Part shown: in pieces, positions 45,495 through 48,773 of the stretch
Layout: each line of letters opens with the position of its first letter
Numbering within the stretch: position 1 is the stretch's first letter
The notes under the pieces: generated by a model
What the model was told of the DNA's origin: nothing
Database searches by the model: none
Seen by the model: the letters and a program-made list of their open reading frames with translations, nothing else
Position numbers and translations under genes: made by a program
Origin: Clostridia bacterium
GTDB taxonomy: Bacteria > Bacillota > Clostridia > Christensenellales > Aristaeellaceae
Reading direction: 5' to 3'
Length of the DNA: 64,000 nt
Assembly: GCA_017428385.1 (NCBI GenBank)
Contig: JAFRQX010000036.1
Location: forward strand, 7,325 to 71,324

Positions 45495-46730
45495 ATGAAT
45501 CAGACAGAGAAGGCACTGGCTCTCGCGAAAAGCGATAGGCTGAACTGCATCGCGGAACTGGATGAAACCGCACTGGAACAGGCAAAAGCACAGGAAGCGG
45601 GCAAACAGGACAAGCCGCTGGCCGGGATACCGGTGCTGGTGAAAGACAATATTGACGTGAAGGGCCTGCATACCACGGCAGGCAGCCTGGCACTGGCGGA
45701 CAATATTGCCCGGGAGGACGCACCGGTGATCCGGAACCTGCGCAGGAACGGCGCGGTGATCCTGGGAAAAACCAATATGACGGAGTTTGCCAATTATACA
45801 ACCGATGGTATGCCGGGTGGATACAGTTCCCGCGGCGGGCAGGTGATTCACGCGGTGAATCCGAAGCTTTCACCCACCGGTTCTTCCTCCGGATCGGCGG
45901 TGGCGGTTGCAGCGGGAATTGTACCGATGGCTGTGGGAACAGATACCTCCCACTCCGTGACCGGCTGCGCGATGTTCAACGGGATCTGCGGGCTGAAACC
46001 GCCAGCGGGCACACTGTCGGCGGAAGGGATCATTCCCATTGCCAGGACGCTGGACAGCGCAGGGGCGATGGCGCGGAACCTGACCGACGCACTGAAACTG
46101 TATTCCGCCATGCGGGACGAACCGCTGCCGGAACTGAAGCCCCTCAGGATGGACAAGCTTCGCATTGCGGTGAACCGGGCAAACAGGGAGCATCTTCAGT
46201 GCCAGGAACAGTTCCTGAACAGCCTGCTGAGGAAGCTGAAAACAGGCGGGGCCGTGATCGGAGAAGTGGATCAGGGAGCGGCGCCTGAAATGGTGACGAT
46301 CATGCAGTGGGAATTCGGGCCGATGCTGGAAGACTATCTGGCAAAATCCACGGCGGAACGGAAAACCCTGGCGGAGATTGTCGCGTACTATGAAGCCAAT
46401 CCGGATACCATGATGAAGTACGGGGACAAATTGCTGCGGGCAGCGCTGGATGAAACGCCCGGCGGACTCGAGGGGAAACCCTATCTGGACGCCCTGGAAG
46501 CACGTAAAGAAGCTATTTCAAAGGTTACGGCGGAGATCGGGGATTATGACGCTGTCCTGATGACGGGACCGACAAGCATTATGCATTACTGCGGTCTGCC
46601 GACGGTTACGGTGGCGGGAGAAAAGAAGAATCCCGACGGTGTGAATGAGGCAGTGATCCTGTACGGAAAGGATGAGTACAGGCTGTATGAAGCCGCCCTG
46701 GCGATTGAACAGGTGATGCTGAAGATATAG
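45495..46730 (+). CDS. Amidase signature family protein
   Basis: GIPVLVKDNI (Lys), GSSSGSAVAVAA, GTDTSHS; ATG 45495 after GGAG. Confidence 0.9.
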   Translation: MNQTEKALALAKSDRLNCIAELDETALEQAKAQEAGKQDKPLAGIPVLVKDNIDVKGLHTTAGSLALADNIAREDAPVIRNLRRNGAVILGKTNMTEFANYTTDGMPGGYSSRGGQVIHAVNPKLSPTGSSSGSAVAVAAGIVPMAVGTDTSHSVTGCAMFNGICGLKPPAGTLSAEGIIPIARTLDSAGAMARNLTDALKLYSAMRDEPLPELKPLRMDKLRIAVNRANREHLQCQEQFLNSLLRKLKTGGAVIGEVDQGAAPEMVTIMQWEFGPMLEDYLAKSTAERKTLAEIVAYYEANPDTMMKYGDKLLRAALDETPGGLEGKPYLDALEARKEAISKVTAEIGDYDAVLMTGPTSIMHYCGLPTVTVAGEKKNPDGVNEAVILYGKDEYRLYEAALAIEQVMLKI

Positions 46731-46776
46731 GGCATCCGGGAGCCCCCCCGGGCTTTTGAAAACGGCAATTTCCGGG

Positions 46777-46805
46777 TTGACAAGGGACAGGACTTCTGGT
46801 GTAAT
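46777..46805 (+). promoter_or_regulatory. Sigma-A promoter of GNAT leader
   Basis: TTGACA-17-TGTAAT with extended TGn. Confidence 0.7.
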
Positions 46806-46836
46806 AAGATTAATCTTTGAAAGGCAGGTGAGTGAC

Positions 46837-46893
46837 ATGGTTTACCAGGCATACCGGATTGAGAACTTCTGTCATTCACCCAAAGCCGCCTGA
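46837..46893 (+). CDS. Leader peptide MVYQAYRIENFCHSPKAA (18 aa)
   Basis: GCAGGTG RBS; lies between promoter and terminator; codons 7-12 complementary to terminator 5' arm. Confidence 0.7.
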   Translation: MVYQAYRIENFCHSPKAA

Positions 46894-46928
46894 AGCAGTC
46901 AGCGGCCATTGGTCAATACGGAAAGTAC

Positions 46929-46957
46929 AGTGTTCTCGATTTCGGGAACACTTTTTT
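46929..46957 (+). terminator. Leader (attenuator) terminator
   Basis: agtgttctcga-tt-tcgggaacact plus TTTTT, 28 nt before the GNAT start. Confidence 0.8.
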
Positions 46958-46985
46958 GTTTGACTGCGGAAGGAGCATAAAACAG

Positions 46986-47936
46986 ATGACATTTGAATCA
47001 GTGAGGAACAATCCGGAGCTCTGTGAACAGGTGAAGGACTACTGCCGGGAAAAGTGGGAGAAGGTCAGCGGCATCTTTGCCCAAACGGCGGACAGGAGCG
47101 TCAGCGCGGAACAGTTTCCGCAGACGTGGGTGATGCTGGTGACGAGTCCGGAAGGAACCAGGGTGAAGGGGTTTTACCAGCTGGAGGAAAAGGACAGGCT
47201 GACCATCCATACCGGACTGACGCCTTTCATCACCACGCTGTTTGTGGATCCCGGGATGCGCGGCGGAAAAGGTTTCGGGGAAATGATCCTGAACCACGCA
47301 CGGGGCGTGCTGGGAAGCATGGGATACGATACCGCCTACCTCTGCACGGACCACATCGGATACTATGAACAGTATGGCTTTGAAGAGATCGCGCTGGACA
47401 TCACCGACTACGGGCAGCCGACGAAGGTGTATGTGACGGACACGCTGGGCGAGAACCGGTATGAGGTCTTTGACCGGAAGCATCCGATGCCGGATCATAC
47501 GCGGCTGGCGGTTTACGGACTGCAGCACGAAATGCAGGATAACCCGGCCTTCCTGCTGTGGTTCCTGAAGAACGCGACGGTGACAGGACAGTATCCGAAG
47601 TTTTTTACGGTGACCGCTTTCCGAGAGGAACGGGTCGTCGGCGCGGTGAACGCGATGTGCAGCCCGGAGGATCCGCAGAGCTGGTACATCGGGGACCTGA
47701 TCGTGGCGGAAGACTGCCGCGGGCAGGGAATCGCGGATAAAATGATCCGCAAGGCGCTGACCCGGATCGGCCGGTGCGCCGCGGGCGGGGAAACGGTCTG
47801 CTCCTATATTGAGAAAGACAATGAGGCCTCCGGGAACCTGCACCGGAAGCTTGGATTTGAGGACACCGGAGAGCTGAAATCTTTCGGGGATTTATGCTTC
47901 AGGGAAAACATGACCACATGGATCAGGAAGATATAA
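46986..47936 (+). CDS. Tandem two-domain GNAT acetyltransferase
   Basis: LFVDPGMRGGKGFG and LIVAEDCRGQGIA motif A; NEASGNLHRKLGF; AAGGAG RBS. Confidence 0.9.
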   Translation: MTFESVRNNPELCEQVKDYCREKWEKVSGIFAQTADRSVSAEQFPQTWVMLVTSPEGTRVKGFYQLEEKDRLTIHTGLTPFITTLFVDPGMRGGKGFGEMILNHARGVLGSMGYDTAYLCTDHIGYYEQYGFEEIALDITDYGQPTKVYVTDTLGENRYEVFDRKHPMPDHTRLAVYGLQHEMQDNPAFLLWFLKNATVTGQYPKFFTVTAFREERVVGAVNAMCSPEDPQSWYIGDLIVAEDCRGQGIADKMIRKALTRIGRCAAGGETVCSYIEKDNEASGNLHRKLGFEDTGELKSFGDLCFRENMTTWIRKI

Positions 47937-48011
47937 CAGGAAAAAGAAGTGGGCTGCCTCTGAATGAGGCAGCCCGTTTTATGGATAGGATTGGAGATCC
48001 CTGTCAGTCAT

Positions 48012-48773
48012 TTACTTTTTGTCGTAGGTATAACGGATTCCGTTGTCCTTGCAGTACTTGTGCGCATAGGAACCAAAGGTGACCCTGCAGGTCAGGTTGT
48101 CGCAGTTGACGAACGCCATGTTTTCGATCTTCTTCACGGTGCTCGGGATGGTGAGGACAGTCATGCCGTTCTGTCCCTGGAAGGCAACACTGGCAATTTC
48201 CTTGATGCCGTGGGGAATGGTGTATTCGCCGTTAATGGTGCCGAAGGAGCTGACGATCCGCTTGGTTTTCTTTTCAATCAGCAGCTTGCCTTTGACCTCA
48301 TAGTAGTTATTGCCGCGGGAAATCTTGACATACTTCAGCTGATCGCAGTAATTGAATACACCGTCGCCAATCTTTCTCACGGTGCTGGGGATGGAGATGG
48401 ACCGCATATCAACATTGAGCATGAAGGCCTGACCCTTAATGGTTGTGACACCGTGAGGGATCGTAAGATCCTTCAGGCGGTAGCATCCGGCTATTGCACA
48501 GACACCCAGTTCTTTAACGGTGAAAGGGATAACAACTTTTTTCAGGTTTACACAGTTCCAGAACGCGTCTTCAGCAAGGGAAGTGATCCAGTATCCGTCG
48601 ATCTGCGCCGGGATGATGGCAGTCTCAATGTTCTCGTCCACACAGCGGAGCTCCGCGGTATGGGCGCTCTTTACCGTGTACGTATACGGGCTTTGTTCCT
48701 CCGCAGCGGCTCCGGCAAGGATTGTTCCGCAGGCGAGCAGCAGCGCCAGCAGCATGACCAGTAGTTTTTTCAT
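48012..48773 (-). CDS. Secreted leucine-rich repeat (BspA/TpLRR-type) protein
   Basis: Signal peptide; repeated L..l.IP.gv..I...aF..C units. Confidence 0.88.
   Translation of the reverse strand: MKKLLVMLLALLLACGTILAGAAAEEQSPYTYTVKSAHTAELRCVDENIETAIIPAQIDGYWITSLAEDAFWNCVNLKKVVIPFTVKELGVCAIAGCYRLKDLTIPHGVTTIKGQAFMLNVDMRSISIPSTVRKIGDGVFNYCDQLKYVKISRGNNYYEVKGKLLIEKKTKRIVSSFGTINGEYTIPHGIKEIASVAFQGQNGMTVLTIPSTVKKIENMAFVNCDNLTCRVTFGSYAHKYCKDNGIRYTYDKK

Follow-up and report, generated by a model that had tools for sequence, protein, structure and literature searches.

The leaders closest in design to the element reported here come from Bacillus subtilis. That of vmlR, the gene of an ABCF resistance factor, has been characterized experimentally: a short upstream open reading frame (uORF) lies in an anti-antiterminator, the antiterminator carries an apex hairpin, and an intrinsic terminator is combined with an element that sequesters the Shine–Dalgarno (SD) sequence of the main gene (PMC9226507). 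Induction of vmlR requires that a ribosome be held at the start of the uORF or close to it, and the leader is off both without translation and under normal translation. Attenuators of bmrCD, tlrB and ytbDE have also been described (bioRxiv 10.1101/2025.01.13.632840); like the leader studied here, those of bmrB-bmrCD, tlrB (yxjB/rlmAII) and ytbDE rely on leader-ORF attenuation with an anti-antiterminator, an antiterminator and a terminator (PMC9226507; bioRxiv 10.1101/2025.01.13.632840), and here, as in B. subtilis, several unrelated genes per genome follow one logic. We analyzed a 64,000-nucleotide stretch from a Clostridia bacterium of the Aristaeellaceae (contig JAFRQX010000036.1; hereafter the window), in which a leader of about 150 bases precedes a gene encoding a protein with two GNAT acetyltransferase domains.

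This leader defines a so far undescribed family within a well-known class of switch, and literature searches turned up no account of a GNAT leader peptide or attenuator. It probably acts as a transcription attenuator that senses the position of a ribosome on a leader ORF and adds a translational lock, and ribosome stalling on the leader is most likely what is needed to turn the GNAT genes on. We infer stalling as the signal, the stall position and the link to GNAT substrates mainly from the architecture of experimentally studied leaders.

The overall plan (an anti-antiterminator holding a uORF, an apex hairpin, a terminator and an SD-sequestering element) is that of vmlR, which counts for the stall-sensing model, and we propose the same response to ribosome position. 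The two leaders nevertheless share no sequence similarity and no relation in Rfam or covariance-model searches. The uORF spans 17–22 codons instead of three, its own SD and AUG supply the 5′ arm of the anti-antiterminator, unlike in vmlR, and the main-gene SD is sequestered by a long-range helix with the uORF stop region, whereas vmlR uses a local hairpin. The NusG-dependent pause described for vmlR, which synchronizes RNA polymerase with the ribosome and need not define the class, has no conserved motif that we could see by eye in the GNAT leader, and GNATs are regulated rather than ABCF proteins. Gene class and host (gut and rumen Oscillospiraceae/Ruminococcaceae) also differ from those of bmrCD, tlrB and ytbDE, and while tlrB induction needs the peptide motif RYR together with tylosin, the GNAT leaders have no conserved motif and use three frames.

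Mutually exclusive helices in the leader

The features of the locus are given below by window position, with the evidence for each in brackets.

46777..46805, plus strand: promoter (sequence; promoters of relatives at the same distance)
46819..46831, plus strand: extended SD of the leader ORF, GAAAGGcAGGUGA (in all leaders found through protein homology)
46837..46893, plus strand: leader ORF, 18 codons and TGA (kept open in 20/20 cluster representatives)
46827..46837, plus strand: 5′ arm of hairpin P2, GGUGAGUGACA, comprising the SD core and the start-codon A (minimum free energy (MFE) fold, RNAalifold, pair counts)
46870..46880, plus strand: 3′ arm of P2, UGUCAUUCACC, an anti-SD in codons 12–15 that would join the antiterminator 5′ strand in the ON state (folds, pair counts)
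46856..46872, plus strand: antiterminator 5′ strand, GGAUUGAGAAC and CUGU, codons 7–12, a mimic of the terminator 3′ arm (duplex energy, covariation)
46885..46906, plus strand: hairpin P3, which holds the leader stop codon and would form the antiterminator apex (folds)
46886-46902, plus strand: CCGCCUGAAGCAGUCAG, complementary to the GNAT ribosome-binding site (RBS) and hence termed anti-RBS (RNAduplex, pairing across relatives)
46911..46917, plus strand: weak SD mimic GGUCAAU (constrained folds; relatives judged by eye)
46927..46942, plus strand: antiterminator 3′ strand, ACAG and GUUCUCGAUUU, the latter being the terminator 5′ arm and loop (covariation, duplex)
46929..46957, plus strand: intrinsic terminator, stem 46929-38/46943-52, U-tract 46952-57 (scanner, pair counts, RNAalifold)
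46960..46976, plus strand: GNAT ribosome-binding region, UUGACUGCGGAAGGAGC, with SD AAGGAG at 46970-75 (complementarity to the anti-RBS)
46986..47936, plus strand: regulated gene, 316 aa, two GNAT domains (Pfam, PDB; homologues P0001–P0009)

Covariation across relatives supports four helices in this region: an anti-antiterminator, an antiterminator, a terminator and an anti-RBS helix. All four are conserved and covary, and they are mutually exclusive. In its MFE fold the free leader (z = −3.8) forms three hairpins, P2, P3 and the terminator. In P2 the SD core, together with the start-codon A, pairs with codons 12–15, and the loop of P3 contains the leader stop codon. Since the antiterminator strand occupies the upper part of P2, this hairpin is the anti-antiterminator, and it also buries the leader RBS. 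From an alignment of 20 cluster representatives, which also served for the pair counts of P2, the antiterminator and the terminator, RNAalifold independently predicted P2 and the terminator. The 20 base pairs of these two helices were paired in 99.8% of cases, compared with 35–52% in slid controls. P2 alone reached 99.5%, and column pair 20-58, the sole position that the search pattern described below left free, occurred as UA, UG, CG and AU. The terminator was called by the scanner as AGTGTTCTCG-ATTT-CGGGAACACT at 46929-52 followed by TTTTTT; its 10-bp stem with a 4-nt loop and U-tract was 100% paired in the 20 leaders, varying mostly through G-U.

The antiterminator pairs GGATTGAGAAC (46856-66) with GTTCTCGATTT (46932-42) through 11 pairs, three of them G-U, and is extended by CTGT 46869-72 with ACAG 46927-30. 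Hybridization of the ORF with the terminator 5′ arm (RNAduplex) gave −16.8 kcal/mol against −7.4 ± 2.2 for shuffled sequences, none of 1,000 shuffles being as good. The core is about 100% paired across the 20 leaders as CGAGAA:UUCUCG, CGGGAA:UUCCCG or CGAAAA:UUUUCG, with AU/GC/GU swaps at two positions, and 13 doubly changed cells were counted, compared with 5.7 ± 1.9 in shuffles. Most lineages carry, by eye, a copy of the SD box (GUGAAUAAU or GGUGAAAU) just 5′ of the terminator. In the window this mimic is weaker, GGUCAAU pairing with AUUCACC (46874-80) as an upper antiterminator helix, which lies in a stretch that aligns poorly and was not formally counted. Constrained folds combine both parts into an ON structure consisting of one long hairpin, 46856-80 with 46911-42, with P3 at its tip.

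A further helix of the first MFE fold, P1 (46808-14/46908-14), was rejected, being partly upstream of the likely transcript start, not conserved and missing from tRNA-adjacent copies.

An initial annotation made from the letters alone had claimed the promoter, the 18-codon ORF, the terminator, the alternative pairing and the tandem GNAT gene. Each of these is present where it was placed, and the pairing exceeds chance. Three features had escaped it: burial of the SD and AUG in a hairpin (46827-37/46870-80), the upper antiterminator pairing and the helix at the GNAT RBS.

A proposed second layer at the GNAT ribosome-binding site

The leader segment around the stop codon is complementary to the ribosome-binding region of the GNAT gene, whose start comprises SD AAGGAG 46970-75 and ATG 46986. 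The duplex between 46886-46902 and 46960-76 has a predicted energy of −18.5 kcal/mol (RNAduplex), with values of −21 to −29.5 in relatives. At loci L003, L004 and L012, CCUUGAUGCGGUC pairs with GACCGCAUUAAGG over 13 bp; at L001, GAUGCAGCC pairs with GGCUGCAU; and L047, with unrelated letters, keeps the complementarity as CUUGUG..AUAGCC with GGCUAUCACAAG. Among 11 distinct sequences this helix was 88.5% paired against 20–47% in slid controls, and two of its pairs alternate between AU and GC, GU serving as an intermediate.

A ribosome that reached the leader stop codon, or sat on it, would open the GNAT SD. The SD-sequestering hairpins of vmlR and tlrB form a parallel (PMC9226507). In the erm, cat and cmlA translational attenuators (ErmCL, CatA86L, CmlAL), a leader-ORF ribosome likewise frees the SD of a resistance gene; those systems, however, depend on conserved arrest peptides plus drug and act on translation only, whereas in the GNAT leader transcription termination comes first and the peptide is not conserved.

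A maintained reading frame without a conserved peptide

The leader ORF (MVYQAYRIENFCHSPKAA) runs on the plus strand for 18 codons from ATG 46837-39 to TGA 46891-93. Five nucleotides upstream of the ATG lies an unusually long SD box, GAAAGGcAGGUGA (= GAAAGGCAGGTGA), at 46819-31, with 12 nt complementary to the 16S 3′ tail and one bulged C; the mRNA complement of the conserved 16S 3′ tail is AGAAAGGAGGUGAUC. The extended SD occurs in every leader found via protein homology, with a mismatch replacing the bulge in the L012 version, AAAGGUGGUGA. Both the AUG and the SD are invariant in the nine protein-retrieved lineages whose contig includes the leader 5′ end. This holds although the start-codon U and G stay unpaired in both RNA states and GAAAGG lacks a constant partner.

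In 20/20 representatives no stop interrupts the ORF between codon 2 and the end of P2 (chance expectation, 0.41 per independent sequence), while the other two frames carry stops in 6/20 and 9/20. Distances from the AUG to TCATTCAC of 31, 33, 34, 35, 36 and 37 nt mean that, depending on the lineage, each of the three frames is used to read the conserved 3′ half. Despite such frame-changing indels, ORF length stays at 17–22 codons, with the stop 9–22 nt past P2 and before the terminator.

The encoded peptide is not conserved: 45 different leader peptides were found, none of the leaders compared shares a conserved arrest peptide, and the entropy of codons 2–7 at codon positions 1, 2 and 3 (1.11, 1.30 and 1.28) reveals no codon periodicity. 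We conclude from these comparisons that translation matters, and that selection has acted on an ORF spanning the antiterminator and anti-SD strands and not on its peptide. Because MVYQ and the residues that follow are not conserved, sensing through the peptide as such is unlikely. Motifs resembling the macrolide-type +x+/RYR (RNR, RIR, KTR, AYR) occur in some leaders, not all.

Two other readings of the ORF were tried and set aside. A recurrent R-x-E/G-N-x-C/Y-H-S suggested a conserved peptide; these residues are the translated antiterminator (CGAGAA) and anti-SD (UCAUUCAC) strands, and the idea was rejected because frame-shifted lineages keep the RNA and lose the peptide. Amino-acid attenuation would recall the trp, his, leu, thr and ilv leaders, which like this one combine a leader ORF, alternative 1:2, 2:3 and 3:4 hairpins and an intrinsic terminator. 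Those leaders have regulatory codon runs and precede biosynthetic genes, whereas no codon runs were found in the GNAT leader ORFs and the downstream genes are always GNATs, not biosynthetic.

One long ORF was seen, at L034 (2269-2400), a variant of the L004 leader in which the stop TGA is changed to CGA, giving 36 codons that run through P3.

Exclusive association with GNAT genes

Protein homology led to nine GNAT homologues (P0001–P0009, 53–91% identity) from Ruminococcaceae/Oscillospiraceae metagenome-assembled genomes and gut and rumen assemblies, together with four GTDB loci. The same leader stands upstream of every protein-retrieved GNAT relative whose contig includes upstream DNA; at L001 and L011 two GNAT genes form an operon, and the leader stands before the first of them. 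A metagenome scan with the pattern GGCAGGTGARTGAYATG, N20-44, TCATTCAC, which by design fixed the SD, AUG and anti-SD bases in that set, returned at least 120 matches from human gut, rumen and digesters. These collapsed into 76 unique leaders in about 20 clusters (<88% identity).

The leader is associated exclusively with GNAT genes: all readable ORFs 3′ of the listed leaders look like GNATs. They fall into about seven sequence families, which include tandem (315–331 aa), triple-domain (468 aa) and single-domain (152–178 aa) proteins. Representatives of six families matched only generic GNAT models of NCBIfam, far under curated cut-offs. In the window, residues 4-150 (N-terminal domain) matched PDB chain 9y12_A (E = 3e-11) and residues 200-305 (C-terminal domain) matched Pfam Acetyltransf_1 (PF00583, 4e-18), assigning the 316-aa protein to the GNAT superfamily. 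Its NCBIfam matches to AAC, RimI, EctA, ArsN and MshD were all far under curated cut-offs, and an AlphaFold (AF2) model built from a 10-sequence alignment was poor (predicted local distance difference test, 58.7).

A covariance model (R1) run over 862 kb of retrieved loci added no divergent copies. One weak match, L041 9532-9686, proved to be an ordinary terminator. Another, L117 6677-6826 on the minus strand (18.5 bits; GAATGATATATATT ... GAGAATACAATATCTATCATTTGC, with a different terminator), may be a decayed or very divergent leader copy, a doubtful remnant.

Genomic setting of the leaders

The window promoter consists of −35 TTGACA (46777-82), a 17-nt spacer and an extended −10, TGgTGTAAT (TG 46797-98; TGTAAT 46800-05), with a predicted transcript start near 46811-13. 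It was not listed by a consensus scanner because its −10 has a G at position 2. Relatives carry TTGACA-17-TATAAT/TATGAT/TAAAAT at the same spacing to the leader, with 11–13 nt between the −10 and GAAAGG. Immediately 3′ of the amidase gene (45495-46730) a G+C-rich hairpin with TTTT (GGGAGCCCCCCCGGGCTTTT, 46733-46757) is probably the amidase terminator, which would make leader and GNAT gene a transcription unit of their own. Downstream, the GNAT gene converges with a BspA-type leucine-rich-repeat gene (48012-48773, minus strand); between them lies a strong hairpin at 47951-47975, GGGCTGCCTC-ATTCA-GAGGCAGCCC, which the scanner calls a minus-strand terminator and which may end both genes.

Neighbors of the leader vary from the amidase gene in the window to hrcA-grpE (L006), SurE (L018) and, elsewhere, tRNAs. 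In many lineages the leader starts 5–10 nt past the 3′ end of a tRNA gene, with no promoter visible between them; such tRNAs are tRNA-Leu(UAG), tRNA-Thr(CGU) or a Lys-Glu-Met-Trp array (L002 552-636, L006 2741-2816, L027 6521-6605, L035 10403-10485, L038 519-979, L051, L058 and L040). At these loci leader and GNAT gene would be co-transcribed with the tRNAs, the mRNA 5′ end coming from tRNA processing. Promoter-driven copies likewise begin only about 5 nt upstream of GAAAGG.

Some contigs carry two leaders of different clusters 2–8 kb apart, each before a GNAT paralogue (L020/L105, L093/L097, L067/L085, L077/L106, L072/L112 and L032/L054), an arrangement suggesting that a single genome may hold a regulon of several copies. 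Truncated GNAT ORFs (90, 130, 194 or 232 aa versus 326 aa; L022, L031, L061, L063, L118, L127) are frequent in the human-gut cluster with the most copies, and at L063 an unrelated downstream frame continues the ORF after '...GDVVGS'; pseudogenes, deletions or errors of assembly may account for these cases. At L059 (5836-6100), leader and terminator are intact and are followed by GACCGCA, but unrelated sequence takes the place of the usual RBS and GNAT start; a 179-aa ORF called at this locus has a GNAT-like start and then diverges, which may reflect an insertion or rearrangement.

Effect of ribosome position in silico and presence in RNA libraries

We masked a 28-nt ribosome footprint along the ORF of 21 leaders and computed equilibrium folds. 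The free full-length RNA formed the terminator with a probability of about 1.0 in 20/21. With codon 1-2 in the P site, antiterminator probability rose to 0.3–0.98 in 8/21 leaders (window, 0.35; L019, 0.95; L001, 0.98), and masking codons 17-18 raised it likewise in about 9/21. With codons 3-15 masked, the terminator persisted in nearly all leaders because the mask covers the antiterminator strand. In the window, masking of the AUG made the antiterminator the full-length MFE structure (−34.6 kcal/mol).

Assembled contigs from four metatranscriptome runs contain the region, with contig starts at 46791-46804 and one contig (46804-47360) that crosses the terminator. Such contigs give no transcript ends or ratios, may include DNA carry-over, and prove neither a start site nor regulated read-through. 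The human-gut copy L035, used as a query of RNA data, returned nothing usable.

Proposed mechanism

In the model that we favor, the RNA would start a few bases upstream of the very long SD. With no ribosome bound, the SD and AUG (46827-37) would pair with codons 12–15 (46870-80) as P2, the terminator (46929-52) would form and transcription would stop. A ribosome on the SD and first codons, or one held at the stop codon, would block P2, allowing codons 7–15 (46856-80) to pair with 46911-42, with P3 at the tip, and RNA polymerase to read through. Under normal translation, a ribosome in the middle codons would cover the antiterminator strand, and termination would follow in this case too. A second lock would operate in read-through RNA, in which the GNAT RBS (46960-76) would be paired with 46886-46902, so that GNAT translation would also need a ribosome to arrive at, or rest on, the end of the leader ORF.

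The initial annotation had proposed an attenuator induced by stalling in the first few codons (MVYQ). Conserved covarying helices, upkeep of the ORF and the effect of a mask at the first codons, seen in the window and in part of the relatives, support its core, a transcription attenuator with a translated leader. The MVYQ peptide, however, is not conserved, and the stop codon emerges as a second permissive position.

Several points weigh against this model. About half of the leaders keep the terminator under any mask (for example, L020, L011, L024, L047, L092 and L094); given these folds, either such leaders must switch kinetically or the model is incomplete. A kinetic decision is conceivable because the antiterminator is made before the terminator 3′ arm. 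A conserved NusG-type pause motif, TTNTTT, was not seen in the window; by eye, AT-rich relatives have T-rich stretches after P2, whereas the window, L001 and L024 lack them. In principle, a pseudoknot could accommodate both P2 and the antiterminator, a structure beyond the reach of the folding tools. Burial of the leader SD and AUG would leave ribosomes a short window for co-transcriptional loading, which is unusual and unproven. Invariance of the SD, AUG and anti-SD is informative only in the roughly nine protein-retrieved lineages, since the pattern fixed these bases elsewhere. Finally, with no codon run and no conserved arrest peptide, the sequence names no inducer.

Alternative explanations

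Two alternatives assign no role to translation, and both appear improbable. One is a riboswitch or other ligand-binding RNA in which the SD-like box and AUG would be parts of an aptamer, possibly a P2/antiterminator pseudoknot, and a metabolite, perhaps the GNAT substrate, would choose between antiterminator and terminator without translation. Strong structure (z = −3.8), the exclusive link to one enzyme class and burial of the leader SD in the default fold would all fit, and, judging by the geometry of the alignment, short linkers could allow an H-type pseudoknot between the P2 loop and the terminator 5′ arm. Yet the SD, the AUG or the four helices account for every conserved base, and variation is greatest in the unpaired stretches (codons 2–7 and P2 to terminator), where sequence, length and even the presence of P3 change, leaving no candidate ligand pocket. 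The ORF is open in all lineages and in all three frames, and conservation extends to the start-codon U and G and to the GAAAGG of the SD, none of which has a constant partner. About seven GNAT families make one common substrate ligand less likely, and a search of 46000-48000 against Rfam 15, even at E <= 10, gave chance matches elsewhere and none overlapping the leader. Slightly less credible still is a trans-acting factor (for instance the GNAT itself, an RNA-binding antiterminator or a tRNA) that would bind the GAAAGGCAGGUGAAUGAUAUG box or P3 and set the balance of P2 and antiterminator, with an incidental ORF. A 5′ box that is very conserved and longer than a usual SD would suit such a factor, as would the many copies directly after tRNA genes and the several copies per genome, which look like a regulon. 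The box is, however, the complement of the 16S 3′ tail, correctly spaced from the AUG; no candidate regulator gene is conserved beside the leaders, whose neighbors differ; and maintenance of the ORF would go unexplained. For tRNA as the ligand, no T-box-like specifier or T-box sequence was found in the leader, nor any Rfam match.

The remaining alternative keeps translation and drops stalling. The leader would be a constitutive damper, or a gauge of growth rate or ribosome availability in which read-through scales with 30S capture before P2 folds, and the leader ORF would mainly open the GNAT RBS by long-range translational coupling. We consider this unlikely, though less so than the two ORF-independent readings. 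In its favor, the extraordinarily long SD competes directly with P2, and the leader stop codon lies inside the anti-RBS, as it would in translational coupling. Transcription of several copies comes from tRNA promoters, whose activity follows growth rate, and neither an arrest peptide nor a run of codons is conserved. What speaks for stalling instead is that the antiterminator strand lies within the ORF, where an elongating ribosome masks it, a placement typical of stall sensors and needless for a gauge, and that the architecture matches that of antibiotic-induced leaders (PMC9226507). As to the signal, capture with coupling is a real alternative; for the stall-sensing attenuator, the signal is, by analogy with vmlR, bmrCD and tlrB, most likely translation stress such as that caused by ribosome-targeting compounds.

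Implications for GNAT genes of gut and rumen anaerobes

The switch kind is well known, and the advance is a new family with its GNAT regulon rather than a new principle. Its mechanistic additions are the placement of the leader-ORF RBS within the anti-antiterminator and the use of the leader stop-codon region as the anti-RBS of the main gene, through which two regulatory layers coupled to one ribosome become testable. Acetyltransferase and resistance genes stand under translation-drug-responsive leaders elsewhere too, as with the mycobacterial whiB7 uORF, which controls the GNAT eis; that uORF controls a transcription factor, not a GNAT directly, and is unrelated in sequence, structure and host (PMC10274678).

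Should the model hold, a single short RNA element would mark a set of acetyltransferase genes as translation-stress responders in abundant but poorly studied gut and rumen anaerobes, in which at least 120 metagenomic copies were found; several contigs carry two, so a genome can hold more than one. A more speculative extension, which we advance only tentatively, is a multi-copy 'stalled-ribosome regulon' of gut and rumen Oscillospiraceae/Ruminococcaceae, with single, tandem and triple-domain GNATs behind one leader family. Its enzymes, which would be an unrecognized set of inducible acetyltransferases, might inactivate ribosome-targeting natural products or drugs, as a hidden part of the gut resistome, or acetylate a component of the translation machinery to relieve stalling, and the leader ORF would hold two sensors, one for a start-proximal stall (transcription) and one for arrival at the stop codon (translation). 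Aminoglycoside-modifying genes also follow the integron aac/aad leader, a proposed 'aminoglycoside riboswitch' with a short ORF, whose sequence, structure and hosts are unrelated to those of the GNAT leader. Identifying the inducer of the GNAT leader would open a direct route to the function of GNATs left unnamed by annotation, through tests of whether the enzyme acetylates it, and the leader could uncover inducible drug-modifying enzymes in commensals.

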